A DNA stretch of 56,836 nucleotides from a virus (taxonomy: Duplodnaviria > Caudoviricetes): positions 1 through 56,836 of the IMG/VR virus record IMGVR_UViG_3300037155_000015, one strand, 5' to 3'. Below are positions 37,619-53,581 of this stretch, piece after piece; the first letter of the stretch is position 1; each line of letters begins with the position of its first letter. Below the pieces are notes generated by a model, which was not told the origin of the DNA, did not search any database, and saw nothing but the letters and a program-made list of their open reading frames with translations. The translations under genes and the position numbers were made by a program.

Positions 37619-37726
37619 AGGATTTCCGTTGTGTCCGTGCGGTGGACGATGGTTATTTTATCCGCTGTTCATCATTGTATAGCTTCTATAATATATCGTG
37701 AGTTTTAGGCACAATCGCAGTTTCCT

Positions 37727-39154
37727 TCACGCCGCCATGGCCCCGCGTTGCCGTGAGATCCCCTTGTGAATGTCCCTGGCCACCGGTCGAGTCCTGGCAA
37801 TCTCCATGCCGGTGTTCTCCAGATAGCGGGTCGTGTCCATCAAGTGATCATTCACTTTGACGATCTTCCCGTTCTCGTCCCGCCGATACAGCCTGTACTC
37901 CTCAAACCAGGGCGTGAGCGTCTTGAACACCTTCATCCTGCCGGTCGAGAGCCGCGTCCAGACCCGGTAGATCCCAGACTCCACGGCGTTGTTCGCCTCG
38001 GTCAGGTCAAGCCCCTCGTCACGGTACTGCTGCAGGAGTTGTGCCCCGTCATCCTGTGTCCGCCCGCGGGAGGCCGGGTCGATCGCCCCAGGTATCCATG
38101 AGCCCCGAGCTTTAACAGCCGAGGCATGGATAGGAGGCTGTGCTTTTCCCTCGTAATGGCAGGAATAGAGGTAGAGGCAATCGCTCTCCCGGTCCATCGC
38201 TCCCCAGAGTCCGGCTGTCCGGTTCCAGCCGACATCCAGGGCGTAGGCTCGCGGCCAGTGATCCGGGATAACGAACGAGGCAACGGTGATTTCTTCTTCC
38301 GGGATCGGGTAGATCGCCCCGCTGCCGAGTTGTGGGATACCTTTCGATCGGGCGTCACGTTGATGGGGAGGGAGAGCCGCCCAGAGTTCATCCTTAGCTT
38401 CCCTGGTCAAATGTGGTGCATCGTCCCATGTCGCGGAGATGATGAACTTCTTGGCGTTCTCAGTTGGTACTTTTCCACCAGGTAGGAAAGTGAGCACAAC
38501 TTCTGACAGACCTTGCAGGGGGGTGAAGGTGAGCATTACACAGCCGTCCGTCGTCATCGTACGCAGGAGACATTCCGTGTAGATGCTCAATGGTGGCTCT
38601 TCATCCAGCCAAACGATATCTTTCGACGTTCCCTGGAATGATTCCCGGCCCTGATCATAGCTCTTGAACGTAAGTGCCGAAGTCCCGCCGGAGATGTGCC
38701 GGACATAGACCGTCTCAATCGCATCCGCCACGCTCCGCTTCTTGGCGTGAGATATGATCTTGTCACCAGGGATCATACCGGTCCCGAACTCGGAGGGAAT
38801 GCCCGGAGGGCCGCATAGTTTCGCCTGCAGAATGTCCCGGACCGTCTGATTGGTATCACCAGCCGCCCAGATATCTGTCGGACGGTGGAAGCGCTTACCG
38901 ATCCACCATGCGGGATAAATGCCGGTGAGGTGACAGGTTACTGCGTATGCCCCGGCCTCACTTTTGCCGACACGATTCGCCGCCATAAAAGCAATTTCTC
39001 GCCAGTCGGCGCTTGCTGCAAAAAACGCCATGTGCTTGACGTACAGCTCACGGCGCAACGGTCCTTCTTCGGGGAAATAGTCGGCAAACTTCCTGCGACT
39101 CTGGCGCCAGTCCCACTCCTGCAATAACATAAGGTAGCGCTGGTTGTCGGTCAT
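37727..39154 (-). CDS. terL: Terminase large subunit (P22 gp2-like)
   Basis: Walker A AANRVGKS, FKSYDQGRESFQG, Walker B WLDEEPP, nuclease motifs LDVGW and DHLMDTTRY. Confidence 0.95.
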   Translation of the reverse strand: MTDNQRYLMLLQEWDWRQSRRKFADYFPEEGPLRRELYVKHMAFFAASADWREIAFMAANRVGKSEAGAYAVTCHLTGIYPAWWIGKRFHRPTDIWAAGDTNQTVRDILQAKLCGPPGIPSEFGTGMIPGDKIISHAKKRSVADAIETVYVRHISGGTSALTFKSYDQGRESFQGTSKDIVWLDEEPPLSIYTECLLRTMTTDGCVMLTFTPLQGLSEVVLTFLPGGKVPTENAKKFIISATWDDAPHLTREAKDELWAALPPHQRDARSKGIPQLGSGAIYPIPEEEITVASFVIPDHWPRAYALDVGWNRTAGLWGAMDRESDCLYLYSCHYEGKAQPPIHASAVKARGSWIPGAIDPASRGRTQDDGAQLLQQYRDEGLDLTEANNAVESGIYRVWTRLSTGRMKVFKTLTPWFEEYRLYRRDENGKIVKVNDHLMDTTRYLENTGMEIARTRPVARDIHKGISRQRGAMAA

Positions 39155-39750
39155 TTCAGGAGCCTCTTGGCTTCCAGTGTGGCAATCTGCGCCAGAACCT
39201 GCTCGTCAGTGAGTTGTGTGATCTGGAACAGCGGGTTCTCGGGATCTCCACCGATATGCTGGGTATTTTTCCATCCATAGTTGTTAATCAGGTTGAAAAT
39301 AGGTCCGGTAGCGTTATTTCCGAACAGGGATTTCTCCGCATAATTCTCGCAGCGAACCTTCGCTTTTTTTATCGTGTCATAAAACTCTTCGCGTCCCTCG
39401 TAATTCAGGAGCCCTTGCCGGGTGGTATCAAGTGCTATCGCAAGCCCTGTGATGGTGAATGGCTCGACCTGCTTCTTTATTAACCTCTCCCCAGTCTTTT
39501 TCCCTTCTTCGTCTTTAAGGGCAACGGTGAACTCTTCAAAACATGATTCAAAATAAGCATCAATCGCGGTCTGTAACTCTTCGACTGTTTCGAACTTTCT
39601 TGGCCGGCCAGACTTCTTGCGTGCCTGTTCCTTTTCAAATTCTGCCATCGACGGGAGGGCGCAAATTACCTTCTTATCAGACAAAAGCCCCACAGGTTCT
39701 GCACCCAGGGGCTTCGTGGTAGTCTTCGCTGGAGTCTTTTTGGCGGTCAT
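39151..39750 (-). CDS. terS: Terminase small subunit (P22 gp3-like)
   Basis: GRPRKFETVEELQTAIDAYF...PFTITGLAIAL...GPIFNLINNYGW. Confidence 0.88.
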   Translation of the reverse strand: MTAKKTPAKTTTKPLGAEPVGLLSDKKVICALPSMAEFEKEQARKKSGRPRKFETVEELQTAIDAYFESCFEEFTVALKDEEGKKTGERLIKKQVEPFTITGLAIALDTTRQGLLNYEGREEFYDTIKKAKVRCENYAEKSLFGNNATGPIFNLINNYGWKNTQHIGGDPENPLFQITQLTDEQVLAQIATLEAKRLLK

Positions 39751-39824
39751 GCGCGATCCTTTATTTCGATGTATAGCGCCTTCAGCAACACGGCATAATT
39801 CCGAATATCGGTTGGCGAGTCCAT

Positions 39825-40166
39825 TTATAGCTCCTGCCTGAATTCGATCTCGTCCGGCTCGCCGATCTTTACCTTTTTTATCTGCCGGTCGAGTTTGAAA
39901 CCGTGCCTTTCGAGTTCCTGGAAGATCTCAATCGCGGTGCGAGAGTTGAGCCATCCGGTCGCCTTCCGTAACATCCGCACCTTCGCCTTGACCTGCTTGG
40001 TATTGATGAAGAACTTTCCGCAACCGGCGCACCGCATGACGCTCAACCGAACGACATAACCGGGGAGAGCAGATCCATCTTGCAGATCCTTAACGGCGAT
40101 GAGTTCAGCCGTGGCCAGGGGGTGCTTGCAGAACCATTTCAGCCAGAGGCGCTTCAACCGTTTCAT
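39825..40166 (-). CDS. Hypothetical protein
   Basis: Coupled to the KTSC gene. Confidence 0.55.
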   Translation of the reverse strand: MKRLKRLWLKWFCKHPLATAELIAVKDLQDGSALPGYVVRLSVMRCAGCGKFFINTKQVKAKVRMLRKATGWLNSRTAIEIFQELERHGFKLDRQIKKVKIGEPDEIEFRQEL

Positions 40167-40369
40167 TTCTTCGCCTCCAGCTTATTCCCCTTCACGTTCA
40201 TCTTCTGGAGGTGCTTACCGACGCTCGGCGCTTCCTTGAGCTTCCGGAAACCCTCCGGGGTAACCCCGTCATAGGAATAGGTGCGTCCACCCTTGAACCG
40301 AACGTGCATAACTTCGCCCTCGTGTCCGACGGCTTCAATATGCGAAGATTTTACCGGGTGCATCTGCAT
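40163..40369 (-). CDS. KTSC-domain protein
   Basis: VKSSHIEAVGH...VRFKGGRTYSYDGV...LKEAPSVGK. Confidence 0.9.
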   Translation of the reverse strand: MQMHPVKSSHIEAVGHEGEVMHVRFKGGRTYSYDGVTPEGFRKLKEAPSVGKHLQKMNVKGNKLEAKK

Positions 40370-40396: not shown

Positions 40397-40424
40397 ATTT
40401 TATGCTTTACTGCTGGAATGTCAA
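40397..40424 (-). promoter_or_regulatory. Sigma70-like promoter upstream of the KTSC/packaging genes
   Basis: TTGACA-16 nt-TAAAAT on the minus strand. Confidence 0.6.
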
Positions 40425-40442: not shown

Positions 40443-40503
40443 AATGAACCAGTCGCGGCACACGGTCTGCGCTACCGCTTGCCGGTGCGCTTTGTCGTTG
40501 GAA
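40443..40503 (+). repeat. attC-1
   Basis: AAC CAGTC GCG-G-CAC-A-CGG...CCG GTG CGC TTTGTC GTTGGAA; 52/53 identical to attC-8. Confidence 0.8.
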
Positions 40504-40507
40504 AGCT

Positions 40508-40951
40508 CTAGCGGCCTTGTAGCCGTCGCAGAGCACTGACTAAAATCTGCTGTTCTGCCTGAATATTTTTTTCAGCATGATGGAACTCTTGCTGACTGCT
40601 CCAGATGTTACCCTTAGGCCCAATGTGTTGCCGTGCTTTACCGGCATCGTTGACCCAAATCAGGCCCCACTTTTCGGGCAAATCTTGTGCCGTGATGACC
40701 CCGGCAGGGCAGAGATAAAAACGATAGGTCCCCATCCCCATCCAAGGGTTACGCCGGAAAAGTTTCTTTGCATCCGCTAGAAAATCAGAGCGGCTTGTTT
40801 TACACTCAATCAATGTAGATGTCCCGTCCCGGAATCCGATAGCGTCCGGCGTCTCCATGCCTAGAGTAACCAATTCAGCCAGCACAGCCCCGCACTTGCG
40901 AGAGCCTATCAGCCAACGTTCTGCAATTTTAACGAGTTCAGTATGTGTCAT
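40508..40951 (-). CDS. Cassette 1: PD-(D/E)XK (MmcB-like) nuclease-fold protein
   Basis: ETPDAIGF...LIECKTSRSDFLAD motif. Confidence 0.75.
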   Translation of the reverse strand: MTHTELVKIAERWLIGSRKCGAVLAELVTLGMETPDAIGFRDGTSTLIECKTSRSDFLADAKKLFRRNPWMGMGTYRFYLCPAGVITAQDLPEKWGLIWVNDAGKARQHIGPKGNIWSSQQEFHHAEKNIQAEQQILVSALRRLQGR

Positions 40952-40969
40952 AAAATCCTCAATTCGCTT

Positions 40970-41031
40970 TTCCAACCAGGCACCGGACCGGAGGCGATGA
41001 ACCCGCCCCGGTCAGCGCCTAGCCGTTAGAT
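40970..41031 (+). repeat. attC-2
   Basis: TTCCAAC...GACCGG-A-GGCG...CGCC CCGGTC...GTTAGAT. Confidence 0.75.
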
Positions 41032-41751
41032 AGTCTCTGCCAGTGCTTCCTTGGCAACATCGCGCATTTCACCGTATACCAATGAAGGGGATGAACTGCG
41101 GGGGAAATTGGCGAATGCAACAATGTCTGTCAGGGCTTTCCGCAGCTTATTAATTTCTATCTGCCGTGATATTGCTTTGCCGTACCATCGGTTGCGCTCT
41201 TCCTTTAGTTCAGCAGCCCATGAAAGATCACCGCCAGACTCTTCCCTGCAAATCCGCGCTATCTTTTCGGCATTATACTTTGCGCCCTTACCCCATTGGT
41301 TAGGCGGAGCTTGTGTCATTTCGTCGGCAATAGTGGCGGCAAACTCAAGCCCCTGCAAATAGCCCTCTCTGCCAGCTTCGATAGCATTTAACTGCTTGCA
41401 CTCTAGACATTCCCTTTCTCGACTACCCCGTAACTCAGCAACCAGCTTTTCGAGGTGGTCAATTCGCCCCTGCAACAAGAGACGGACTTGCTCTGTCGTC
41501 ACTATTTCTGGTGGTTCAGGTTCAGCCCACGTCTTAACCTCTACTTGTGCGGCAATACAACCAGCACACCGGGAAAACTGGACAGAAAACCCGCTATGGT
41601 CAGGTTTCAAATATCCATCAGTGCGGAATAGCCGACACAACACGCTGCCATGCTCTTGTACCGCTTTAAGGTAGTTGCAATAAGGGTGACACTGGTTCAA
41701 GTCTTTGTCATTGCCCTTGATCTTTATTTCAAGCGTTATTTCTGCTGGCAC
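41026..41751 (-). CDS. Cassette 2: hypothetical protein (several smaller ORFs lie upstream in the same cassette)
   Basis: Its TAA stop coincides with the GTTA of attC-2. Confidence 0.65.
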   Translation of the reverse strand: MPAEITLEIKIKGNDKDLNQCHPYCNYLKAVQEHGSVLCRLFRTDGYLKPDHSGFSVQFSRCAGCIAAQVEVKTWAEPEPPEIVTTEQVRLLLQGRIDHLEKLVAELRGSRERECLECKQLNAIEAGREGYLQGLEFAATIADEMTQAPPNQWGKGAKYNAEKIARICREESGGDLSWAAELKEERNRWYGKAISRQIEINKLRKALTDIVAFANFPRSSSPSLVYGEMRDVAKEALAETI

Positions 41752-42298
41752 TTGTCACCTCCCGCACCATCCGACGAATCAACCGAATAGTTGCCTTGTC
41801 AAAATTTATGCTGCTTTTGTCGTAGTCTGATAATGTTACCGGCATCGTCATCACTCCTTATAGTCTATCAACTCAAGCACTGCTCTTCTCTACTCATTTT
41901 TCACCCCTCTCCGTTTTGTCCCACTCCCGAACGTAATTCCATTCCCCGCAGTCATCACAAGTGGCGTTGAAGTGGTAACCAAGTATCCGCACCGGTTCAA
42001 TTTGAGTAAGTTCCCAAAGCCCACAATTTCGGCACCTTTTCATTTCTTCCCCCATCCATGTTTTAATCCGTGCAGACACCGCTTACAGGTAACTTCTCCC
42101 TTGTCCTTTTCGTCCATCAGAACCGTGGGGGCAGTATCCAGTTTGATGCCGCAAAGTATCTTTTCTCCATTGAACCAGTGCCTTTTCATAATTCGTCCTC
42201 ATCCTCTCTCGGGCATTCTTCCCACCAGTAGTGGAATCTCTCGCATTTCAGGCAATAGCGAATATTCTTAATTTCTGCCACGATTTCTCCTTTCGACT

Positions 42299-42356
42299 AT
42301 CTAACAAAACGTAGCAGCAGGCGATGAAGCCCGCTGCTGTACTTAAGCCGTTATAG
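42299..42356 (+). repeat. attC-3
   Basis: ATCTAAC AAAAC GTA-G-CAGCA...TGCTG TAC TTAAGCC GTTATAG. Confidence 0.85.
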
Positions 42357-42848
42357 ACCTTTTACGCGTAACACCAGTTGACATGGCCCTGTCCAGCCTT
42401 TGGAAAAATGGAAGGTTCCCGTGCTGAATCCGAAAGGGAAGCCGACCATGCTGCCGCGGCCGTACACCGTTATGCCCTTGATGCCGCCCCAATCGTTAAT
42501 CATCTTCATTATGATCTGCCGCTGGAAAACCTTGTTCGTCGGCAGTATGTACGCTATGTCGTTTGCAATCTTGAAGCTGTGCCGCAGCCATTCCTCAAAA
42601 ATCGAATATGGCGGGTTTCCGATGATCCAGTCCACCGGGTCGCGGTAATCAAAGAAGTCTTTACCCTTTCGCAGTTCGCACCAGTCCGAGCCAGCCGGAA
42701 GATGCTTGTGGAATGCTCCATCGCCGAAACAAGGGTCAAGGCACTTGCCAGAAGGCTGCAGCCAGTCAATGATCTCACTCGCCACGGTATCCGGCGTGTA
42801 AACGATATCTGACGGCCTGGGCGGTATGTAAAAAAGTGGTTGTTGCAT
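42351..42848 (-). CDS. Cassette 3: small N6-adenine DNA methyltransferase-like protein
   Basis: VYTP, LDPCFGDGAF (motif I) and IIGNPPY (motif IV). Confidence 0.8.
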   Translation of the reverse strand: MQQPLFYIPPRPSDIVYTPDTVASEIIDWLQPSGKCLDPCFGDGAFHKHLPAGSDWCELRKGKDFFDYRDPVDWIIGNPPYSIFEEWLRHSFKIANDIAYILPTNKVFQRQIIMKMINDWGGIKGITVYGRGSMVGFPFGFSTGTFHFSKGWTGPCQLVLRVKGL

Positions 42849-42893
42849 CTCGATCCTTTAAAGGCTATGGCCTTCGGCCAACGCGTAAAATGT

Positions 42894-42951
42894 CTATAAC
42901 CAAACGCTCGAAGCCGACCGCTTCGCGGCGGTTCAGCTCAAGCCGTTATAA
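42894..42951 (+). repeat. attC-4
   Basis: CTATAAC CAAAC GCT-C-GAAGCCG-A-CCGC TTC GCGG CGGTTC AGC TCAAGCC GTTATAA; closely resembles aadA-type attC. Confidence 0.9.
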
Positions 42952-43677
42952 ATCTTCTTGCGCTAAAACCTGCCATGCTGTTGCAGCCACCAACGGAACT
43001 TGACCGTTTCCAGTGGCTGCAAGTCGCTCCAATTTTCCGGCCAGCCCATCACCCATTCCCAAAATTCGGGCCTTCTGTTCTGCCGCTTCTTTCCAAGTCC
43101 CAGATTTGCCCACCAATCGCGCAGATTGTATTCTTTCCCGTTTTTGCTTCTGCAAATTCCTCCCCCATCCCCATCGGACTTGATCGGTGTCGGCAAGAAT
43201 CCATATTCGTTCCCGCTTATGCTGGGCGCCAACGTGGTCAGCTCCCAGCACTCCCCATCTTGCATTAAACCCCATCTCGGCCAGGTCTCCGAGAACCCGT
43301 CCGAGTCCCCGAGAAGTGAGCATTGGTGAGTTTTCCACAAGGACGTACTTCGGTCGTACCTCAGAAATGATCCGGGCCATCTCTGCCCACAATCCAGACC
43401 GTTCACCGTCAAGCCCTGCACCTTTTCCGGCGCATGAAATATCTTGGCAGGGGAAGCCACCGCACACGACTTCTGCAATCCCTCGCCATGGCTTGCCGTC
43501 AAAGGTGCAGACATCATCCCAGATAGGGAACCACGGCAGGATTCCGTCTCGTTGCCGCTGTAAGAGGACTTCTCGGCAGTAAGGTTCAATTTCGACTGCA
43601 CAAACTGGCTTATGTCCGAGAAGCAATCCGCCGAGGATGCCTCCCCCTGCTCCTGCAAATAAATGTAGCTCATTCAC
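42946..43677 (-). CDS. Cassette 4: C5-cytosine DNA methyltransferase, alpha frame
   Basis: LFAGAGG, GGFPCQD, VENS, HKRER and GNGQV motifs; GTG start at 43677. Confidence 0.9.
   Translation of the reverse strand: MNELHLFAGAGGGILGGLLLGHKPVCAVEIEPYCREVLLQRQRDGILPWFPIWDDVCTFDGKPWRGIAEVVCGGFPCQDISCAGKGAGLDGERSGLWAEMARIISEVRPKYVLVENSPMLTSRGLGRVLGDLAEMGFNARWGVLGADHVGAQHKRERIWILADTDQVRWGWGRNLQKQKRERIQSARLVGKSGTWKEAAEQKARILGMGDGLAGKLERLAATGNGQVPLVAATAWQVLAQEDL
42963..43673 (-). CDS. Cassette 4: fully overlapping alternative-frame polypeptide (beta, motif IX)
   Basis: 236-aa open frame with LPTP and PEFWEWVMGWPENWS. Confidence 0.65.
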   Translation of the reverse strand: MSYIYLQEQGEASSADCFSDISQFVQSKLNLTAEKSSYSGNETESCRGSLSGMMSAPLTASHGEGLQKSCAVASPAKIFHAPEKVQGLTVNGLDCGQRWPGSFLRYDRSTSLWKTHQCSLLGDSDGFSETWPRWGLMQDGECWELTTLAPSISGNEYGFLPTPIKSDGDGGGICRSKNGKEYNLRDWWANLGLGKKRQNRRPEFWEWVMGWPENWSDLQPLETVKFRWWLQQHGRF

Positions 43678-43715
43678 GTCAACCCCTATGCCCTGTCGGG
43701 CAAGCGCAAGAAAAT

Positions 43716-43774
43716 TTCTAACCAAACATTCGACCTGACCGATGAAACTGGCAGGTCAATTCAAGCCGTTAGAT
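43716..43774 (+). repeat. attC-5
   Basis: TTCTAAC CAAAC ATT-C-GACCTG-A-CC...GG CAGGTC AAT TCAAGCC GTTAGAT. Confidence 0.9.
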
Positions 43775-44341
43775 TGCTAAGTCACATTTCACTTCGTTGC
43801 CCCAAACGTCCCACCCCGGCGCGGCTCTCCGTGCGAAAAGTTCCACCCTCGGGAGATCCCCCGCCAGTGCAAGAATCCTTTCCCGTGTCTCGTCCGGTTT
43901 CCGTGAATGTGCCGCAATCGGTGAATAAATAATCTGGTGCACTCCGGCGCTGACTCGCTTCGGTTGCCCCTTCACTGCCAACAGACAAAATTCAGTATTT
44001 GCCCTTGTCCACCGTCCCATCCCCCAGAAACTGTCGAAACTGTCCACAGGGAAAAAACTGGCTTGGTCAACATTCGTGCGCTTGTTGGTTTTCACCCATA
44101 CAAAGGCGCACGTCTTAAAGTCAAAGCCCCACGCGGCCAGCACTGCGCCAGCTTCAAACAGTTTAGGCCATGCTCCCCACATGAACAGCAGACAATCATC
44201 GGCGGCGATGTCGGCAATCGGAAGGGCGCAAATGTCCGCCAGTTTCATCGTGCTGTAATGTCGCTCTGCCCCCCCACGGTTCAGGGCTTTATCGTCGTAA
44301 CTCCATGGGGGATCAGCGTAAATAATGTTGTACTTTTTCAT
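43769..44341 (-). CDS. Cassette 5: MT-A70-family adenine methyltransferase
   Basis: IIYADPPW, HYSTM, HSRKP and ELFARR motifs; start MKKYNII. Confidence 0.9.
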   Translation of the reverse strand: MKKYNIIYADPPWSYDDKALNRGGAERHYSTMKLADICALPIADIAADDCLLFMWGAWPKLFEAGAVLAAWGFDFKTCAFVWVKTNKRTNVDQASFFPVDSFDSFWGMGRWTRANTEFCLLAVKGQPKRVSAGVHQIIYSPIAAHSRKPDETRERILALAGDLPRVELFARRAAPGWDVWGNEVKCDLAI

Positions 44342-44361
44342 CGATGCATCTCCTAAACGCA

Positions 44362-44420
44362 ATCTAACCAACGCTGTGGACCAGCCCGAAAACCCGGCTG
44401 GTCACGCTCAAGCGTTATCA
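44362..44420 (+). repeat. attC-6
   Basis: ATCTAAC...GT-G-GACCAGCC...GGCTGGTC AC GC TCAAGC GTTATCA. Confidence 0.85.
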
Positions 44421-44606
44421 ATATCTAGTCTCGTACTTGCTTACGAGCCGACCAGAGCAGTAGGGGCAATAAATAAAGCCATCCTGTCCCGGCCCTCCAT
44501 CGTCAATAAAAAGGAATTTCTCTCCGCATTCGGTATCCCATGACGATGTATCGGGATCATATTTCCACATGCAAAGCCGTTGCTTTTTCTCTTCGCTCAT
44601 TTGCAA
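44418..44606 (-). CDS. Cassette 6: small Zn-ribbon-like protein
   Basis: C.W...WDTECG...FIYCPYCSG. Confidence 0.65.
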   Translation of the reverse strand: MQMSEEKKQRLCMWKYDPDTSSWDTECGEKFLFIDDGGPGQDGFIYCPYCSGRLVSKYETRY

Positions 44607-44791
44607 TCCTCCTGATAGTTGCAGAAATCACACGTTGATGATCCTGGCGCATATTCTCCAAAGCACTCCGGTTCATCATCCTCGACGTAATCTCCGCCAA
44701 CTAAATCGTCAGTAATCATCCCAGTACCACCGCACAGTTGACATGATGGGTCAAGGTATCCGTTTGGCGCAACACACTCAGGACAAAGCAT
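44597..44791 (-). CDS. Cassette 6: Cys-rich protein, paralog of 46221-46406
   Basis: CPEC...CQLCGG...PECFGEYAPG...CDFCNYQEDC. Confidence 0.65.
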   Translation of the reverse strand: MLCPECVAPNGYLDPSCQLCGGTGMITDDLVGGDYVEDDEPECFGEYAPGSSTCDFCNYQEDCK

Positions 44792-44993
44792 CTTTTATCC
44801 TCTTTTCCGTGTAAAACTTGCTTGCCGTTTCCCACGGTATCATTGCTCCTTGATTGTCCCCTTCAAACTTCATTGACCACTGCTTATGGCAAGTGTTGCA
44901 CTCCACCTGTCCCGCTTGGTTTGATATCTTCCGCACAAGAAAAAGGTCGTGCTTACCAATTCGACACGCTAGTTGTTTGAATCCCCAATACAT
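44778..44993 (-). CDS. Cassette 6: hypothetical protein
   Basis: GGAGG RBS before MYWGFK, inside the cassette boundary. Confidence 0.55.
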   Translation of the reverse strand: MYWGFKQLACRIGKHDLFLVRKISNQAGQVECNTCHKQWSMKFEGDNQGAMIPWETASKFYTEKRIKDALS

Positions 44994-45006
44994 GCACCCT
45001 CCGAAT

Positions 45007-45057
45007 TGATAACCATCGGCTGTTGCGGTGAACCCGCAAAGCCTCAAACCGTTATCT
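45007..45057 (+). repeat. attC-7 (short)
   Basis: TGATAAC CATC GGCT-G-TTGCGG TGAAC CCGCAA AGCC TCAAACC GTTATCT. Confidence 0.8.
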
Positions 45058-45058
45058 G

Positions 45059-45277
45059 CTAATTGAACCCTTCGATAAATCTGCGCGCTTCCGACACTGA
45101 CGACAACATTCCTCCCATCATCATTTGCATTCCGAGATTTATTGCTATATGGCCTTTTGTCTCTTCATGCTTCCCTAAGTCGCTGAACATTGAAGTCAAT
45201 GCCTGCATTGGGTCGCCTGCATCGCAGTATTCCAACGCTCTTTTTTTACACCATGCCAAGTGTTCTGTTCGTGTCAT
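45059..45277 (-). CDS. Cassette 7: hypothetical protein
   Basis: MTRTEHLAWCKKRALEY; coupled ORF chain. Confidence 0.65.
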   Translation of the reverse strand: MTRTEHLAWCKKRALEYCDAGDPMQALTSMFSDLGKHEETKGHIAINLGMQMMMGGMLSSVSEARRFIEGFN

Positions 45278-45474
45278 TGAATTTCCCCACTGCCCTCTGC
45301 GAATACTTCAAAACCAAAGTGGGCACCGAGTACCGTTTGCCTTGCAGCATCGGCGCATTCATCCTCAGAAATAAATATCGCCAGTTCTTCACCGTCCATC
45401 ATCGGAGTAATAGTCCCGCGTTGCGTGGTCAGCATTGCAAAATAGTGTGTGTCCAGTTCTTGTTCGACCATCAT
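45274..45474 (-). CDS. Cassette 7: hypothetical protein
   Basis: AGGAG RBS; coupled to the next gene. Confidence 0.55.
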   Translation of the reverse strand: MMVEQELDTHYFAMLTTQRGTITPMMDGEELAIFISEDECADAARQTVLGAHFGFEVFAEGSGEIQ

Positions 45475-45483
45475 TCTACTCCT

Positions 45484-45732
45484 TTATCGTGCTCTCAGTT
45501 TTTCCAACTCTTCAAGGCAAACTCTGAACGCTTCGGCCCGCCCTGATTGCCAATCATCGTCATCATCGTTGTGGTCATATTGGTTGATTGCGTCTATCGC
45601 TTCCTGAATAACAGCTTGCCGTGTAGTATGAACTGTTTCCTTAAATGGAAATGGTTGCATCATACCACCACATCGGCACAATGGTTCCGGTGTAAATTGC
45701 TTTATCCTTCCGGTACAAAAATCTTCACTCAT
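45484..45732 (-). CDS. Cassette 7: hypothetical protein
   Basis: GGAGG RBS. Confidence 0.55.
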   Translation of the reverse strand: MSEDFCTGRIKQFTPEPLCRCGGMMQPFPFKETVHTTRQAVIQEAIDAINQYDHNDDDDDWQSGRAEAFRVCLEELEKLRAR

Positions 45733-45925
45733 TCGGCACCTCCGTTATCTTGCCTGTTTTGGCTATTTTGCAAGCAGGCCCATGCTTAAACCTGGCATCT
45801 CCAATGTATTGCCACTTCTGAACAACAATATTCCCATCATGGTCTGTGTGGTCATATTCAAAGCCAAGCCGCCTAAAAGTGGCGTATACCTCTTCTTGTG
45901 GCTCTTTCATATTTGAGGTTTCCAT
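45725..45925 (-). CDS. Cassette 7: hypothetical protein
   Basis: Part of an overlapping ORF chain. Confidence 0.5.
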   Translation of the reverse strand: METSNMKEPQEEVYATFRRLGFEYDHTDHDGNIVVQKWQYIGDARFKHGPACKIAKTGKITEVPNE

Positions 45926-46221
45926 CGGTCAACCTCATGGCAAAGCGCCATTTCTGTCGTCACACCATCAGCAACGTCACATTTTAACCATTGCTCAAAA
46001 CGGACGGACATTCTTTCGTCGCGCAGCGTGTGGGCATATTCTTGACATCCTGCAATAAAGGCTTCGCCCATCAACCACCGCTCCCTTTGAGTCAATTCGC
46101 CCGCAAGTACGCCGTAATTGCTATCAGCAAAGGCATCGGTCATGTCTTTAAGTTGCTTCTGCAATCTTTCAATATCCAGTAACAAATATTTCCGGCTGCT
46201 CGTTCTTCTGTCTAATGGCAT
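45907..46221 (-). CDS. Cassette 7: hypothetical protein
   Basis: Probable start MPLDRR with a TAATG overlap. Confidence 0.55.
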   Translation of the reverse strand: MPLDRRTSSRKYLLLDIERLQKQLKDMTDAFADSNYGVLAGELTQRERWLMGEAFIAGCQEYAHTLRDERMSVRFEQWLKCDVADGVTTEMALCHEVDRWKPQI

Positions 46222-46406
46222 TATTGACATTCCTCCTGATATTCGCAAAAGTCGCAATGTGTTCCGGGCTGATAATCTCCAAAGCATTCAGGACCGTCCT
46301 GTATTTCCTCGCTACAATCCGAGAAAAAGTAATTACCATGACATAACGGGCAGTCTGTGGCGGTCGTATCAGGATAACAATTCGGGCATTCCATCATTTC
46401 CTCCAC
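46221..46406 (-). CDS. Cassette 7: Cys-rich protein, paralog of 44597-44791
   Basis: CPNC...CPLCHG...PECFGDYQPG..CDFCEYQEEC. Confidence 0.65.
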   Translation of the reverse strand: MEEMMECPNCYPDTTATDCPLCHGNYFFSDCSEEIQDGPECFGDYQPGTHCDFCEYQEECQ

Positions 46407-46410
46407 CGCA

Positions 46411-46471
46411 CTATAACCAGTCGCGGCACACGGTCTGCGCTACCGCTTGCCGGTGCGCTTAGTCGTTATAC
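46411..46471 (+). repeat. attC-8
   Basis: Near-identical copy of the attC-1 core, bounded by CTATAAC and GTTATAC. Confidence 0.85.
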
Positions 46472-46753
46472 GAATAAAGTTTTACCCTCAGTGATTGCCG
46501 CTGAATCTTGCCGGTATTTTCCACGACAATCTATGATTTGCCGGTGAAGTGCTAAAGTTACAAGATCATCATCTTCAACAGAGAACACCCAGCAGAAGTT
46601 TTGCCACGGGGCATTTGCAGGTGGAGCGCCAGCGAAATGAACATCTTTGCAATAAGCAGCGACAATGCTACCGATTGCGGTCACAAACTCGCACCATTCA
46701 GATTGCGTCAGTTTGTCGTCTGAGTTGCCAATTTGAAGAGTAATTGTTTTCAT
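46466..46753 (-). CDS. Cassette 8: hypothetical protein
   Basis: MKTITLQIGNSDDKLTQSEW with a GAGG RBS; stop lies in attC-8. Confidence 0.7.
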   Translation of the reverse strand: MKTITLQIGNSDDKLTQSEWCEFVTAIGSIVAAYCKDVHFAGAPPANAPWQNFCWVFSVEDDDLVTLALHRQIIDCRGKYRQDSAAITEGKTLFV

Positions 46754-46798
46754 GTAACCTCTCTTTTGCCAGTAATTTATTGAACTCACGGAAACCTC

Positions 46799-46859
46799 GT
46801 ATAACCAGCGTTTCGACCCGACCGATAAGGCCGGACGGGTCAAACGCCAGCCGTTATGC
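46799..46859 (+). repeat. attC-9
   Basis: GTATAAC CA GCGTTT-C-GACCCG...CGGGTC AAACGC CAGCC GTTATGC. Confidence 0.9.
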
Positions 46860-47202: not shown

Positions 47203-47296
47203 GCATAACCACCGGCTAGACAACGACCGGGGTTAGTGCGCGTTGATATGAGTTTGTATGAGTTCGGCCCGGCGTGTCAGCCGGGACCCGTTATGC
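47203..47296 (+). repeat. attC-10 (long variable terminal structure)
   Basis: GCATAAC CA CCGGCT-A-GACA...CCGGG...CCCGG...TGTC AGCCGG GACCC GTTATGC. Confidence 0.85.
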
Positions 47297-47343: not shown

Positions 47344-47751
47344 TTATCCGTAAATGTCTTTGCGCTTCCGCTCTTCTTCGTCTGGCGGATTAAGGGAATT
47401 TCCCCCCGCGTAATCCGTCCCAAACTTATCATCGAGCATGGCGTAGAGTGCTTTTAACTGCTTCGCTGACTCTTCCAGGGTACAGAATGATTCCGGTATC
47501 TGCTTGGCGTTGTAGGGCTGGACCCCTTCGGGCCTGCGGTACGTCTGCGCCAAGGCAATTAAAATCTTGATAGTTGGGAAGGCATCACCCTCTACTGACT
47601 TGTCCAGAGCGAACTCGACCGCCTCAATGCTCCAGGCTTCCAGCTTCAGGTAGTAGATCGACAGTGATTGCTTCGGGACTTGCCGAAAGAACGCCGCCCC
47701 TACCACCGCCATCGCCACCGCAAACCGCTGCTGATCCTCTGTCCCTGTCAT
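47344..47751 (-). CDS. Replication accessory (helicase loader/inhibitor-like) protein
   Basis: Follows the initiator; YYLKLEAW...FPTI pattern. Confidence 0.5.
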   Translation of the reverse strand: MTGTEDQQRFAVAMAVVGAAFFRQVPKQSLSIYYLKLEAWSIEAVEFALDKSVEGDAFPTIKILIALAQTYRRPEGVQPYNAKQIPESFCTLEESAKQLKALYAMLDDKFGTDYAGGNSLNPPDEEERKRKDIYG

Positions 47752-48568
47752 AAATCACCATTTCCTTGACGAAATCACGCGCTGCCTCTTTGTTCTTTTC
47801 GATCTTTAGGTCTTCAAAGGTCTGGGCCTTGACCGGTAACAGCCCAATTTCATCCTCCCATCGTCGAGAACTTAACCATCCTTGCGCCATTTTGGGTGTC
47901 CTGCCTTGGCTTCTCAGTTCTAAGCGACCAGATGCCTCGCTTTTGGCCGCTTCGATGATCCTGGCTAAGATTTGGCCGCTAAGAGTCGGGATATCTAACC
48001 ATGAATCTGCGGCTTCCGCTTTACCGGTTTTATAGTCGAATGTTTTCCAGAAAAGTTCAAACGACTCCAATCTTTTGCCAGTCAACTTCCGACCCTTCTT
48101 TGAGAGATAAAAATCCCCTTGCGCTTCATCGCCAGATGAAGGAATGATTTTAGATTCTTTCTCTATCTCCTTCTCTATCTCTATCTCTATCTTTGCGCCG
48201 GATTTTTTTCCGGGTTTGTCCGGCGTGACTCCTGATTTTTTTGAATACTCGTCTCGGAATTTCAATAGGTTAGGGATTTTTATTTTTAGCTTTCCGATAA
48301 AATTAATGTTGTCATACTCCATTAGAATCAGAGTTTTTTCCGAAAAAACGGAGAAAAACATGGTAGTTTTGCGCGGAGTGCAGTGTAATTTCCGCGCCCA
48401 GGCTTTCAATGGATACGACAATTCGCACTTGTCGGAGGTGTCCATTTCGGCCCCAACGAGCTCAAGAAGTAGCCACCAAAACCCGTAACCTTCCAACCCG
48501 AATTGATGCATGATCTCTTCAAGTTTTTCATCGTTGTGTGATCTGGTTTGATGCTTATACCACCGCAT
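47624..48568 (-). CDS. Replication initiator-like protein (DUF4373/Lin1244-like N-terminus)
   Basis: MRWYKHQT...DEKL...GLEGYGFWWLLLE; C-domain FELFWKTF...QGWLSSRRWEDE. Confidence 0.75.
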   Translation of the reverse strand: MRWYKHQTRSHNDEKLEEIMHQFGLEGYGFWWLLLELVGAEMDTSDKCELSYPLKAWARKLHCTPRKTTMFFSVFSEKTLILMEYDNINFIGKLKIKIPNLLKFRDEYSKKSGVTPDKPGKKSGAKIEIEIEKEIEKESKIIPSSGDEAQGDFYLSKKGRKLTGKRLESFELFWKTFDYKTGKAEAADSWLDIPTLSGQILARIIEAAKSEASGRLELRSQGRTPKMAQGWLSSRRWEDEIGLLPVKAQTFEDLKIEKNKEAARDFVKEMVIYDRDRGSAAVCGGDGGGRGGVLSASPEAITVDLLPEAGSLEH

Positions 48569-48599
48569 GCGCCCACCTTTGCCATCGGCTGATTAAATT

Positions 48600-49325
48600 C
48601 TAAATTTCAGGTACTGACAGATATTCTTTGCCGTCCAGAGGACCGCCCTTGAACATGAAGGGAATCCCCGCCGCTGCCGCCTGATCGCGGAGAGATAACG
48701 CCCACTGAGGATCAAAAAGGCGCTTACCTGGGCCATTTTCAGGACCGGTGATGATCCATTTCGGGAGTACCGGCCAGATATCGAGGCAGAGGTTGAGAGG
48801 AGCAAGCATCGGTTCTGCCAGCACTCCGACATTCCAGCCCATTGTGGCGAGTTTGGCAGTCGTCGGATACCGCTTGTTCACCATCTCTTGATTTTCCATC
48901 GTGACCAGATAAATCACCTTCGGGAAATACATGTTGTGGCTCAACGGAGTATTCGGATTGTTCCAATACCGCAATATTTCACGCGGGCGCTTGGTGCAGA
49001 TGATGTGATAGTCGGATGTCTGCTTAATAATTTCGAAGAGCTTGTCGCGAAATACGTCCGTCACGCCTTCATGGAAAATGTCATTCCAGTACGTCCACAC
49101 TCGCGGCTTCCGGTGTAAACTCTTCGGTAAAATATCAGCCATGCGCTCGGGGTGTTCGGCAATGGTGCCGTCAAATGGTTTCCCTCCGTTGAAGCGCATC
49201 TGCATTGCCTCACTCCAGCAATTCAGACAGCCAGGAGATACCTTTGTGCAACCAGATATTAAAGTTTTGGAATGCGTCCAAAATTTCCCTTTCGGTAAAA
49301 CGTCCTGAAGTATTTCGTTGATCAT
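48600..49325 (-). CDS. DUF5131 (gp37/gp68-like) protein
   Basis: GCTKVSPGCLNCW, TKRP, EPML, WIITGPENG and GIPFMFK motifs. Confidence 0.85.
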   Translation of the reverse strand: MINEILQDVLPKGKFWTHSKTLISGCTKVSPGCLNCWSEAMQMRFNGGKPFDGTIAEHPERMADILPKSLHRKPRVWTYWNDIFHEGVTDVFRDKLFEIIKQTSDYHIICTKRPREILRYWNNPNTPLSHNMYFPKVIYLVTMENQEMVNKRYPTTAKLATMGWNVGVLAEPMLAPLNLCLDIWPVLPKWIITGPENGPGKRLFDPQWALSLRDQAAAAGIPFMFKGGPLDGKEYLSVPEI

Positions 49326-49503
49326 TTTGCGCCCTTTCCTTTACTGTGTTTCGGCAACGGCACCCCGGCATCAAGGCACCTGAACCGTCTATCGCAATTG
49401 TCGCAAATCGGATCACACGCACACACCCATTCACCGTTCACAGTTATATGCTTCACTCTCCCTCCCAAAAATCACCGCCGGCCGCTACACCGGCGGTGTA
49501 TGT

Positions 49504-49929
49504 TTAAAGCTCCTCAACCGTAATCAACACGCCCGGCCGGTCCCCATAGGATTTACTCAGTCGGCTTACGATTGCCACCTGGCTGTCATCCTTCCAAATT
49601 ACCCCCGTGAGGGCATCCTTGACGCAGCGCAGGAGTTTGTCCAAGTCCGGCTTCGAAGTATGATAGAGGGGTGCGTTCTGTTTGATGAGTGCCGCTTTGC
49701 TGCCGGTCCCGTAATGCCCTTTGAGCCTCGGCATGGTGAAAATGACCGAAATAGACACCGGACCGATAATGAGGGCGGATTTGTGCTGTGCCGCCGTGTA
49801 GCTGATAGCGGAAGCCCACGGTTTCTGCTTGGCGCCGTTGTCCTGGGTCACAATAGCGCGGCCCTTGACGACGAAGGCCTTGGCGCTTCCTTTGGGGACC
49901 GGAGTCCCCGCTACAAAGAAAGAAATCAC
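49504..49929 (-). CDS. rusA: RusA-family Holliday junction resolvase
   Basis: KPDLDKLLRCVKDALTGVIWKDDSQV. Confidence 0.9.
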   Translation of the reverse strand: MISFFVAGTPVPKGSAKAFVVKGRAIVTQDNGAKQKPWASAISYTAAQHKSALIIGPVSISVIFTMPRLKGHYGTGSKAALIKQNAPLYHTSKPDLDKLLRCVKDALTGVIWKDDSQVAIVSRLSKSYGDRPGVLITVEEL

Positions 49930-51161
49930 GCGAGATCACCGGGCAGTTCCGGCCAACCCTTGTCAGTCACCGGTTCAGCATCTGCCGGGTAAATATTAGG
50001 AAAGAGCTTATCGGCACACCACTGGGGGCATGCTTCGCCAGGTTGCTTTTCCCGGCAATCAGGGCAAAGACGGGTAACGGTTTCCTCTTCGTTGGGTCCG
50101 GACTCCAAGCGGCAAAACTGCTTAGCATTACAGGGGTCGGTACATTTCTCACAACATCCGTTGCAGTCGGGATGGGCAGATTCACAGGCCACACAATCAG
50201 GATTGAGCGTGGGAACCTCGGCGGCATGAGCGTCAATATTTTGGTCGATCTCGGCGAGGGATTGTTCCACGTCGGCTGCCACCTCTTCGCGCCCGCCGAA
50301 GAACTCAGCAACGTTCTCCTCGCTCTTCTTTTCAAAGTCGAACGACAGATGAAGTTCCGCGCCCTCAAGGGTTTTCTCTTCGACAACATCCCAAGTATCC
50401 AGCCGCCGCAGTTTCTTCACGCCCGTGGCATAATCGAATTCCCAGCGACAGTCAACCTGCTTCTCTTCCGTCCCGGTCATAATGATCTGCGCAATGGCAA
50501 TCATTTGCTCCTCGGTCTGGTCAATCACGGAGTTGCAGGACTTGGTAAACGCCTTCTTGTCCAGCTGGGTCCGCTGCCAGAGTTGGAAGAGCCGGGCCTG
50601 TTCTTTGCCATGTTCGGCCAGTTCATCTTCGGGCAATTCAACGGGGAGATGGTGGGTGAATGTGGCGCCAATCTTGTCCGGATCGCGGGAGACGAAAGAG
50701 GTCGGCAGTGACTCGGCAGCTATGGCGTCCATTTCCTCAGCCATTTCAACTTTAGAGTCGTCAACTAGTTCCCAGAATTCATCATCATCCTGATTTAACG
50801 GGTTGCCCGGGTGTATACACGAACCGCAAGGGGCGCTGATATGACAGGAGCAATTCCCGCCGTCGTAATCTGCGTTAAAACTGTCCCGGTCATTCTGCGC
50901 GGCTTCATTGAGTTGGCGGATCTCTTCCGGTTTTTCTACCTCTTTTGCGGCTACAGCAACTCCAAACAACTCGGCAACCGGGCCCTTGGTTGATTTCGCG
51001 TAACCCTCGGAAATCATCGACTGCTCACATACACGGCACCATAATTGATCATCGCGGAATTCACGCTCTGCCATCGGATGCTGGCAAATATCCTCCGCGC
51101 AGGATTCCGCTATCTGTGCCGCATCGTAAATGAAACTCTCGTCGGTACTCTTCTTTTTCAT
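49926..51161 (-). CDS. Acidic, Cys-rich mosaic hypothetical protein
   Basis: 411-aa ORF with CSCHISAPCGSC and other Cys clusters. Confidence 0.65.
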   Translation of the reverse strand: MKKKSTDESFIYDAAQIAESCAEDICQHPMAEREFRDDQLWCRVCEQSMISEGYAKSTKGPVAELFGVAVAAKEVEKPEEIRQLNEAAQNDRDSFNADYDGGNCSCHISAPCGSCIHPGNPLNQDDDEFWELVDDSKVEMAEEMDAIAAESLPTSFVSRDPDKIGATFTHHLPVELPEDELAEHGKEQARLFQLWQRTQLDKKAFTKSCNSVIDQTEEQMIAIAQIIMTGTEEKQVDCRWEFDYATGVKKLRRLDTWDVVEEKTLEGAELHLSFDFEKKSEENVAEFFGGREEVAADVEQSLAEIDQNIDAHAAEVPTLNPDCVACESAHPDCNGCCEKCTDPCNAKQFCRLESGPNEEETVTRLCPDCREKQPGEACPQWCADKLFPNIYPADAEPVTDKGWPELPGDLA

Positions 51162-51373
51162 GGTTTAATCTCCCTTACTTCGATTTCATATTTCGGAACG
51201 CCGTCAATTTCAACCGTGATGACATTGCCCGGCTCGATTTTATCAATGACCGCTTTCAATACATCTCCAGTCACGTCCTGCTTGCCGTCCAGAAAGGCGT
51301 TTCCGGGCTTATTAATTCTCCCGGCATAAATCCTTCCACTCAGGGCCGCACACGCGACAGTAATTTTGCTCAT
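51158..51373 (-). CDS. Hypothetical protein
   Basis: LSGRIYAGR...KQDVT; coupled. Confidence 0.65.
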   Translation of the reverse strand: MSKITVACAALSGRIYAGRINKPGNAFLDGKQDVTGDVLKAVIDKIEPGNVITVEIDGVPKYEIEVREIKP

Positions 51374-51585
51374 ACCGACACACGATCAATCAGGTAGCAG
51401 CCGCTGACCCCATTGAACCATGCAACAGCACAATGGCGGCCCAGAACTTCGGCGGGATGCCTGACGGTAGTTTCAACCGGCTCATCAACAAAATCCTTTT
51501 TAAGCATGACCGGCGTGCCAATAGGATATTTTGTATTGAAATCGTCGCACTCTTTTCGCAACTGTTTCAAGCTCGACTTCTTCAT
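51370..51585 (-). CDS. Hypothetical protein
   Basis: FNTKYPIGTPV...GVSGC; RBS present. Confidence 0.65.
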   Translation of the reverse strand: MKKSSLKQLRKECDDFNTKYPIGTPVMLKKDFVDEPVETTVRHPAEVLGRHCAVAWFNGVSGCYLIDRVSV

Positions 51586-51638
51586 TGTTCATTCTCCTTG
51601 GAATAATTTTTGGAATAATTTGTAGTGGGAATTAGCAG

Positions 51639-52571
51639 TTAATCGGGCGGCGGCTCGCCATGCTCACATTTCGGATTGTAACAATGGCCCTCAATTCGGA
51701 CCTTGCCGCAACCTTCGCCGGGGCAGAGGTCGGGGCCAGGTTCGGCAACCTTCGCCGCTTCGTTGATCTTGGCAACCTTCTCCGCGTTCCTGCTGGTCGG
51801 TTTATCCTCCTCGGTGATGAATGCCCTATCAACCGAAACGGTCCCTTCCTTGATTGCCGTGGCGATACCTTTGAGGATAGCCAGCTCATCGAGACCGATG
51901 TCCTCAACACCCTTGACACCCATGAATTCGTAGATTGTTTCCGGCGCCACGCTCAACTTCTGAAAGTAGGCCATCATGTCAGTGCGCTTCTTCGCCAGGG
52001 TCTTACTGTCGCCAATCGCTGTTTTCTTGGCGGCGTCATAAAGTCCTTGCCAGATTGCTTTCGGGATGCCTTGTAGCCGGGCGTTACGGACTGCTATCGA
52101 ACAGGCGGCATTCCCCGTTACGCCGATCATGTCAGCCTTGTACCGCTTGCCGTATTTGTCAGTGATTCCGCGCTGGACCTCAACGGTGATCGCCACGTTC
52201 TTTTCAAGGTCATGGAAAACGCCTTGTGCTTTCACGAACTGGCTATCCGCTCCCATTGGCCGAGAGCCTGAACGATTGTTCCCCCAGGACGAAGCGATGA
52301 TTTCGGAAAAACGGACGCTCGGCCCTTCAATGAACTTCTTCTTGCCGTTGTCATCCTTGCCACGCGGGAGAGCAAAGATGCAATCCGCGGCTATTTCCTC
52401 AGTGAGGGTCACAAGGTCCATGGCTTCCGCGTAGAACGCTTTGATGCTTCGGGGGTAGCGTTTGGCGGTCGATACCTGTTGATCGATCTCAGCGGTTGAT
52501 ATGATCGCCAGGGCCGTCAATTCATTCGGTGATTCTGTTACTATTTCTGCTTCAACCTTTTCCATGTCCAT
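51639..52571 (-). CDS. Probable ssDNA-annealing recombinase
   Basis: AEIDQQVSTAKRYPRS...IEGPSVRFSE; directly downstream of the exonuclease. Confidence 0.6.
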   Translation of the reverse strand: MDMEKVEAEIVTESPNELTALAIISTAEIDQQVSTAKRYPRSIKAFYAEAMDLVTLTEEIAADCIFALPRGKDDNGKKKFIEGPSVRFSEIIASSWGNNRSGSRPMGADSQFVKAQGVFHDLEKNVAITVEVQRGITDKYGKRYKADMIGVTGNAACSIAVRNARLQGIPKAIWQGLYDAAKKTAIGDSKTLAKKRTDMMAYFQKLSVAPETIYEFMGVKGVEDIGLDELAILKGIATAIKEGTVSVDRAFITEEDKPTSRNAEKVAKINEAAKVAEPGPDLCPGEGCGKVRIEGHCYNPKCEHGEPPPD

Positions 52572-52577
52572 CTCCTT

Positions 52578-53465: not shown

Positions 53466-53581
53466 TTTAGCTCCTTCCTACTTTTATTGTTCACAATCCT
53501 GCTTATTTGTGCCTCTGACACACCGAATCGGGATGCCAAATGTTTTGTGTAATTCTTAGGCAGGCTTATCGTCTGGTTCAT
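53462..53581 (-). CDS. 39-aa HTH-only ORF or remnant
   Basis: Not in the track. KHLASRFGVSEAQISRIVNNK; GAGGA RBS and ATGA overlap. Confidence 0.45.
   Translation of the reverse strand: MNQTISLPKNYTKHLASRFGVSEAQISRIVNNKSRKELK

Follow-up and report, generated by a model that had tools for sequence, protein, structure and literature searches.

The DNA examined here is IMG/VR record IMGVR_UViG_3300037155_000015, a complete virus record (Duplodnaviria; Caudoviricetes) with direct terminal repeats; its whole length, positions 1 to 56,836 (56,836 bp), is called the window in the following. Nearly all long open reading frames (ORFs) of the window are located on the minus strand. A P22-type portal protein, a large terminase and a gp3-type small terminase are encoded at 35351-39750, and RusA, DUF5131, a PDDEXK-like exonuclease and replication-initiator-like proteins at 47624-54774. 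Between the replication/recombination block and the terminase block, in an accessory region at 40444-46859, nine sites homologous to the attC sites of classical bacterial integrons were detected. They are designated S0 to S8, are all oriented on the plus strand, and bound eight gene cassettes with genes on the minus strand (Table 1). The probability of finding all nine sites on one strand by chance is 0.004. An earlier note on this DNA, written from the sequence alone, had placed the array at 41025-46753; the cassettes and sites within these limits were found again, while the span had to be extended to 40444-46859 and to nine sites.

The sites S1 to S8 were first recognized as eight imperfect palindromes of 51-62 nt by reading the sequence and folding candidates of the type TAAC...GTTA. 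S0, a near-copy of S7 and the array end nearest to the terminase genes, was added by covariance searches. Two covariance models were applied, R1, which was derived from 25 bacterial attCs, and R2, which describes the site family of the window and includes S6 among its training sequences. Searching the genome with R2 yielded exactly S0 to S8, all on the plus strand, and besides only one fragment of 8.9 bits (E <= 5). Neither R1 nor R2 detected a further attC site in the 56.8-kb genome. The predicted fold is that of attC: the R'' and R' boxes (AAC/GTT) pair with each other and are separated by a central spacer from an L''/L' stem, and one arm carries extrahelical bases; R'' is degenerate in S0 and in S1. 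Neighbouring sites are separated by 1354 nt at most (S6 to S7). Clustered sites, covariance-model matches, the attC fold, and a genome devoid of an integron integrase gene together place the array among the clusters of attC sites lacking integron-integrase (CALINs). A lone GTTA at 47290-47293 may be the remnant of a former array end. Other searches gave little: an Rfam search of the window returned no family match, blastn of S3 against plasmids gave chance matches only and no attC, and a 12-mer search allowing three mismatches produced 55 matches with 41.6 expected.

Table 1. Sites, cassette genes and signals in and next to the array (R1, R2: covariance model scores; runs: public sequencing runs)
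Feature	Position	Strand	Details
Promoter-like site just past S0, ahead of the packaging genes	40397..40424	-	TTGACA, 16 nt, TAAAAT; 11/12; consensus match only
attC S0	40444..40505	+	R1 12.8 bits, E 0.56; R2 33.4 bits; R'' GAAC, degenerate; R' GTTGG
Cassette ORF, 155 aa, phage protein family of unknown function	40508..40975	-	phrog_631, E 6.1e-55; TAG stop 8 nt beyond S0 core
attC S1	40970..41031	+	R1 15.3 bits; R2 46.7 bits; R'' CAAC; core GTTA 41025-41028
Cassette ORF, 241 aa, no family match	41026..41751	-	stop = TTA of S1 core
Small zinc-ribbon-like ORFs, same cassette as preceding ORF	41894-42079, 42040-42189	-
attC S2	42299..42356	+	R1 15.0 bits; R2 61.2 bits; core GTTA 42350-42353
Cassette ORF, 165 aa, DNA-methyltransferase-like	42351..42848	-	phrog_799, E 8.1e-30; weak PF02384 match; stop = TTA of S2 core
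attC S3	42894..42951	+	R1 19.0 bits; bulged C, G, A in 5' arm; core GTTA 42945-42948
Cassette ORF, C-5 cytosine DNA methyltransferase	42946..43725	-	PF00145, E 1.2e-29; stop = TTA of S3 core; likely ATG 43673
attC S4	43716..43774	+	R1 32 bits, E 1.7e-5 (best canonical match); R2 65.3 bits; bulged C, A in 5' arm; core GTTA 43768-43771
Cassette ORF, MT-A70 family (N6-adenine) methyltransferase	43769..44371	-	PF05063, E 4.4e-27; stop = TTA of S4 core
attC S5	44362..44420	+	R1 8.3 bits, E 6.4; R2 44.3 bits
Cassette, three small overlapping ORFs, no family match	44418..45047	-	44418-44606, 44597-44791, 44778-45047
attC S6	45007..45057	+	missed by R1; R2 34.2 bits (training sequence); short; one bulged G, 5' arm
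Cassette, six small ORFs, no family match	45059..46406	-
attC S7	46411..46471	+	R1 19.3 bits; R2 48.9 bits; core GTTA 46465-46468
Cassette ORF, 95 aa	46466..46753	-	stop = TTA of S7 core; good Shine-Dalgarno sequence ahead of ATG 46753
attC S8, last site	46799..46859	+	R1 17.0 bits; R2 50.0 bits
Lone GTTA	47290..47293	+	contigs of two other runs have an S7-type attC directly beside 47290

Three DNA methyltransferases are among the minus-strand genes of the array. The earlier note had pointed out that five of these genes, ending at 41026, 42351, 42946, 43769, and 46466, take their TAA stop codon as the exact complement of TTA in the G|TTA core, and all five were verified in the sequence. For a sixth ORF, 44418-44606, a TGA stop codon directly adjoins the GTTA of S5. 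A stop codon within the core in five of eight window cassettes is only weakly above the one-in-three rate expected from the reading frame (p = 0.088). Among antisense ORFs of other viral arrays, described below, the arrangement is found in 51 of 84 (p = 2.6e-7). In bacterial control arrays, 19 of 54 co-oriented ORFs stop in TAA of R''.

According to the earlier note, the plus strand is the canonical top strand of the sites. This was borne out by comparison with plasmid R100, by R1, and by the asymmetry of the bulges. On the sense strand of aadA1 in R100, the attC behind the gene begins with R'' and ends with R', and it carries an extra C and an extra A in its 5' arm. The plus strand of the window aligns with this sense strand, asymmetric spacers included. 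R1 is a model of short hairpins upstream of intI1-type genes, its sources being 80 bacterial loci with intI1 or relatives (73-100% identity), and the training hairpins were oriented by their position relative to intI alone, not by structure. In a control set, the 52 of these loci with at least 2.9 kb upstream of intI, 118 matches representing 113 distinct sites were obtained, and 112 of these sites score best on the strand opposite to intI. Strand-specific scoring of the window with R1 (filters off) detected eight of nine sites on the plus strand with 32 to 8.3 bits, six of them with E-values from 1.7e-5 to 0.17, and no match on the minus strand at E <= 10.

The bulges gave the same orientation. 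In the folds of S3 and S4 they are present in the 5' arm on the plus strand and absent from the 3' arm, and the extrahelical bases that had been quoted for these two sites were found in this position. If pairing of R'' with R' is enforced, unpaired bases are in excess in the 5' arm of seven of nine window sites, with one site showing the reverse and one being equal. The corresponding numbers of sites with 5'-arm and 3'-arm excess are 72 and 12 in the bacterial control and 113 and 30 in viral arrays, where the asymmetry agrees with the strand called by R1. Thus, from the absence of minus-strand matches and from the bulge count, the minus strand does not score as the top strand. With the top strand on plus and the genes on minus, each attC is located in front of its own gene and not behind it. 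A first hairpin detector, free of any orientation, was dropped as noisy in favour of the covariance model; its 76 filtered candidates comprised 39 with 5'-arm excess, 29 with equal arms, and eight with 3'-arm excess.

An error in the strand call would turn the array into ordinary cassettes, with minus as the true top strand and genes ending in the R'' box. Such an error is conceivable in principle since attCs are nearly palindromic and, where the R boxes are palindromic, an antisense ORF that terminates in the core mimics a normal ORF that terminates in R''. In addition, the bulge side of S1 and S2 is ambiguous in the free fold, and two of four viral gene pairs are more similar in the attC behind the gene. 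The model that was right at 112 of 113 control sites, however, gave no match on minus, and the bulges favour the 5' arm on plus in seven sites with the reverse in one. Furthermore, the sites in four integrase-bearing relatives lie opposite to and upstream of intI, as in all 112 control sites, and the C5-methyltransferase gene keeps its attC in front in three phages. A wrong strand call is therefore considered very improbable.

Gene polarity was then compared among the window, bacteria, and other viral contigs. Throughout, the longest start-to-stop ORF covering at least half of the interval between neighbouring attCs was scored by a script. In the window, six of eight intervals are antisense, none is co-oriented, and two are without a scorable ORF; the latter are the multi-ORF cassettes; their small ORFs, too, lie on the minus strand, so that the earlier statement of every cassette ORF being on the minus strand applies. 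The classical organisation, an ORF co-oriented with the attC top strand and followed by its attC, is found in none of the eight. In bacteria, that organisation is the rule, as the earlier note had assumed: 54 of 66 unique intervals in the control are co-oriented, two are antisense, and ten have no scorable ORF.

The window-like site pattern was present in 12 viral contig loci, and the sites in nine of them were confirmed by R1; neighbouring ORFs are antisense there, too. The remaining three (L001, L003, and L004) were left out of the counts because neither R1 nor R2 confirmed their sites. A wider survey of viral contigs, designed not to favour the window, relied on a pattern that is perfectly palindromic and hence strand-neutral, and arrays with several R1 sites were obtained in about 30 of 120 loci. 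In these arrays, 84 of 127 unique intervals are antisense, 28 are co-oriented, and 15 lack a scorable ORF, a distribution very different from that of the bacterial control (Fisher p = 2e-20). Pfam matches were obtained for three of the ten longest antisense ORFs (SNF2 helicase, PAPS reductase, RNA ligase) and for none of the ten longest co-oriented ones. The antisense ORFs have the look of proteins, and the co-oriented ones resemble antisense noise of high-GC DNA. ORFs flanking the viral arrays include phage portal, large terminase, tail protein, and family A DNA polymerase genes. The mirrored layout, which the earlier note had ascribed to a distinct phage-adapted class of cassettes, is thus recurrent and not confined to one phage. 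A second palindromic pattern, ATCTAAC..GTTAGAT, occurs in 119 stretches of viral contigs, and none of the 80 searched with R1 (L214-L293, with L294-L332 left out) gave a match. One viral contig, L186, contains two attC arrays, at 218-2163 (plus strand, five sites) and at 8646-12928 (minus strand, ten sites), and their top strands converge on a middle segment of 6.5 kb.

Phages are known to carry fragments of chromosomal integrons, as stated in the sections of Qi et al. (2023, PMC9892861) considered here, and a fragment of a bacterial array might by chance have entered the phage in inverted orientation, in which case the minus-strand ORFs would be spurious or unrelated to the sites. The strong family matches of minus-strand ORFs (PF00145, PF05063, phrog_799, phrog_631) speak against spurious ORFs, and in none of the eight window intervals is the longest ORF on plus. 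Since, moreover, ORF ends coincide with cores and the same layout is present in dozens of phage contigs, this explanation can hardly be maintained.

Some relatives of the array encode an integrase. A tblastn search of viral loci with IntI1 revealed full-length relatives of 33-41% identity in L002, L005, L007, and L009, all belonging to the window-like set. Each gives one full-length match to TIGR02249, with 296.6 (L002), 385.3 (L009), 328.2 (L007), and 266.6 bits (L005), the NCBIfam cut-off for integron integrases being 265 bits. Residues R146, K171, H277, R280, H303, and Y312 of IntI1, which we take to be catalytic, are invariant in the alignment of the four viral proteins, and the insertion region is conserved. 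R2 detected one site in L002, five in L005, two in L007, and four in L009; all 12 are upstream of the intI start and on the opposite strand, which is the normal geometry. In all four loci a putative attI was recognized, consisting of a GTTA or ATTA core at a distance of about 55-80 nt from the start of intI and a second GTTA-like box upstream. An IntI with the IntI-specific region, a predicted attI beside intI, and attCs upstream on the opposite strand make these four loci complete integrons. Cassettes of this kind are thus not bound to rely on an attI or an integrase of the host. Where Pfam supports a cassette gene (the C5 methyltransferase of L002 and the N6/N4 methyltransferase of L005), the gene is located on the intI strand and reads toward intI. 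The C5-methyltransferase cassette of L002 occupies the first position, at the putative attI, and uses as its stop codon the TTA of a G|TTA that is 75 nt away from the start codon of intI.

IntI relatives are encoded in at least 458 stretches of viral contigs, of which the best 80 loci were surveyed for polarity and geometry. R1 matches were present in 37 of these loci, and 110 of 112 matches show the normal geometry. The layout known from Treponema denticola was seen for one of the 112 matches: in L380 (8001-8942, 9463-9561), the sole case in the 37 loci, an attC is located downstream of intI on the same strand.

Several observations indicate that the units of the array are variable. The beginning of the C5-methyltransferase cassette, which has homologous cassettes in L002 and L008, is identical after G| in three contexts, at S3 in the window, at an S7-type site in L008, and at attI in L002, and the sequences to the left of that G are unrelated. 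On the other side, all three have retained an S4-type attC 5' of the gene, with divergent sequence past the core of that attC. The attC bodies are 93-100% identical between otherwise unrelated contigs: L006 contains a 53-nt copy of S3 with 100% identity, L008 and L010 contain S7 copies with about 95%, and L011 an S8 copy with 93%.

Parts of the array were found in 16 public runs, all but three of them labelled as peat metagenomes, and the contigs of four of these were compared with the window. Stretches of the array without cover in runs X3 to X5 were not counted as absent. The flanks are near-identical in these contigs, and the array differs in content and order. Sixteen of 24 joint ends fall within attC sites or at most 5 nt away, the sites making up 9% of the region. 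Two joints lie exactly on cores, with six and seven shared letters. One of these two, from 46463 to 46852 (six shared letters, another run), removes precisely the S7-S8 cassette; a further one, from 44418 to 45049, was present in contigs of two other runs. At 41028, in the S1 core, the contigs of two runs terminate, and contigs of other runs diverge after 45054, in S6. The breakpoints at 44365, 42896, 45008, and 46412 are situated at the edge of R'' and not in the core.

S0 and S7, direct copies of nearly identical sequence, are 6 kb apart and enclose almost all of the array. In run X5, a contig contains a joint between them (40509 to 46412), and homologous loss of the array between the two copies seems possible. 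In runs X3, X4, and X5, ORF 45059-45277 is followed by 21 other letters and an S6-type site of its own; in the window it continues straight into five more small ORFs. From this arrangement, the multi-ORF cassettes of the window may be fusions that arose after loss of an attC. The stretch 39742-40317, from the small terminase gene to S0, is also replaced or diverged in runs X3-X5. Its joints (39741/39742 to 40123/40140; 40227 to 40317) occur without an attC-like site there.

These variants also bear on a different explanation, in which the attC-derived sites would no longer serve an integrase. They could provide short homologies, as mosaic boundary sequences, to phage recombinases that exchange neighbouring genes between co-infecting phages, or could form RNA hairpins on the minus strand for attenuation or processing, and that role would set the uniform polarity. 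The window carries no intI and does carry a recombination module (PDDEXK-like DUF3799, DUF1351, RusA). The breakpoints at the R'' edge and identical attC bodies with unrelated flanks on both sides fit exchange by homology, and S2 is followed on the minus strand by a T-rich tail and was flagged as terminator-like. In the relatives, however, IntI is complete and unaltered at the catalytic positions, an attI accompanies sites of this family, and the sites have preserved strand-specific bulges, which are relevant only to the choice of the strand by an integrase. G|TT is also the position of two joints and of three cassette starts, and terminator-like sites are not enriched in the array (16 found, 12.2 expected). 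Overall, such a role of the sites appears unlikely, if less so than the two alternatives discussed above.

From these analyses, the region 40444-46859 is best described as an integrase-less, integron-type cassette array, a CALIN, of a phage-borne integron lineage with mirrored cargo, residing in a complete genome of a phage with a P22-type portal. We assign a probability of about 0.7 to this description. A number of points weigh against it. The R1 results are weak for three sites, S0 and S5 by their scores and E-values (Table 1) and S6 by the lack of a match. In a test of linkage between genes and attCs, 38 of 45 control pairs share the attC behind the gene; the viral set consists of four distant pairs, one of which agrees better in the attC in front, two in the attC behind, and one equally in both, at values near background similarity. 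Among IntI-encoding viral contigs, polarity is mixed, with 40 antisense and 21 co-oriented intervals and ten without an ORF (n = 71), a count clouded by spurious ORFs in high-GC DNA. The search of the complete 56.8-kb genome for TIGR02249 gave no match, so that recombination within this phage is a presumption. The contigs show variants and not the mechanism by which a joint arose. Finally, one attC body may be flanked left and right by unrelated sequences, as seen for S3 (L006, run X5) and for S0 compared with S7. One crossover at G|TT does not explain such cases; homologous exchange within the sites would, and so would families of near-identical attCs like those in large chromosomal integrons.

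If the array is a mirrored CALIN, the IntI of a co-infecting relative or of the host would carry out cassette exchange at G|TT. Expression would come about by read-through from phage promoters, the earlier note having proposed a leftward early transcript of the phage, and reading of the cassette genes toward intI in the relatives would be in line with the one-directional transcription of phages. At a host attI such cassettes would presumably be silent, as the earlier note had supposed, and the mirrored polarity would keep the phage and bacterial cassette pools functionally apart. A consensus scan detected ten promoter-like sites in the array with 9.3 expected; this lack of an excess is compatible with read-through but is no proof of it. 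A strong two-way terminator-like hairpin (ten pairs, eight G-C, T-run on minus) is located directly after RusA at 49473-49498, so that transcripts across the array may start downstream of it. Between this hairpin and S8 no strong promoter-like site was seen.

A more far-reaching proposal is that phages operate an integron system of their own, with IntI, a short attI, and a large pool of mirrored cassettes. Operon read-through into intI would tie the integrase to infection and not to the SOS response of the host. By the mirrored polarity, the recombinogenic bottom strand is the non-template strand, and transcription may free it to fold, which would couple cassette shuffling to infection. Phage cassettes would then not be expressed in bacterial integrons, nor bacterial ones in phages, leaving two functionally separate pools that share one recombination chemistry, the phage pool being stocked with anti-restriction genes such as methyltransferases. 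We offer this proposal tentatively and regard it as possible rather than probable.

Close relatives of the phage identified via the small terminase, L333 and L334, end at the array; in L333, a single site is present right at the contig end, oriented opposite to terS. In GenBank phages with a homologous C5-methyltransferase (MW202462, phiRSP, phPA-G), no site of the window type was detected within 4 kb, and the gene exists outside cassettes, too. In Pseudomonas phage L337 (PP083311), a diversity-generating retroelement with annotated reverse transcriptase and Avd is located at 6957-8491, 2.5 kb from the C5-methyltransferase homologue; R2 found no attC-like site there. In the structural half of the window, a single ORF of 2577 aa occupies 11144-18877 on the minus strand.

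The findings describe a phage lineage, possibly many, in which recombination sites and integrase geometry are kept but every gene is flipped. Phages can apparently use the chemistry of integrons to shuffle their own accessory and anti-defence genes. Passage of cassettes from phage arrays to bacterial ones, or the reverse, would be largely non-productive, which qualifies the published idea of phage attC arrays as a route for cassettes between bacteria. Pipelines for annotation will assign cassettes wrongly in viral data if they presuppose co-orientation.

Integrons are generally regarded as devices of bacteria, with the orientation of cassettes fixed so that their genes are read from the promoter Pc. 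With the class 1 integron of R100 (intI1, attI1, aadA1), the window shares the R''/R' boxes with AAC/GTT, the L''/L' stem, the 5'-arm bulges on the top strand, and the G|TT cassette boundary, and in the relatives intI is likewise located upstream of the array and encoded opposite to the attC top strand. Unlike in R100, the genes of the window are opposite to the attC top strand, the attC precedes the gene, and intI is missing from the window; the genes of the relatives read toward intI instead of away from it, and no arrangement of the Pc type applies. Sedentary chromosomal integrons contain reverse-oriented cassettes, such as toxin-antitoxin cassettes with their own promoters, as scattered exceptions in co-oriented arrays. 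There, too, a gene is antisense to its attC, whereas in the window this holds for every cassette and promoter-like sites are not in excess. In integrons of the Treponema denticola type, intI is oriented as the attCs and transcribed toward attI, as described in the sections considered here of Cury et al. (2016, 10.1101/030866) and Wu et al. (2013, PMC3607928). As far as these descriptions go, intI and cassette genes point the same way both there and in the integrase-bearing phage relatives. In the Treponema type, however, only intI is flipped and the relation of gene to attC is normal, while in the four phage relatives the geometry of intI and attC is normal, intI being opposite to the attC top strand and transcribed away from attI, and the genes are flipped.

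CALINs in bacteriophage genomes, with DNA methyltransferases among their cargo, are known from Qi et al. (2023, PMC9892861). In the parts of that paper considered here, IntI1 is reported to recombine five of six tested phage attCs, the bottom strand better than the top strand, and the phage arrays are called typical in structure, with no mention of genes antisense to attCs in these parts. No description of mirrored gene/attC polarity in phage arrays was found in the open-access literature searched. Polaribacter phage P12002L, taken from Qi et al., gave one weak R1 match (13.6 bits on plus, E 0.31) between two minus-strand methyltransferase genes. The window resembles the phage CALINs in its cluster of attCs without intI in a phage genome and in its DNA methyltransferase cargo; as far as those parts describe them, it differs in that all eight cassettes are antisense, in its nine sites, and in having relatives with IntI and attI. 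Phage attC clusters as such were thus already known from that paper, and relative to the parts considered here the mirrored gene polarity and the IntI-bearing relatives with normal intI/attC geometry are new.

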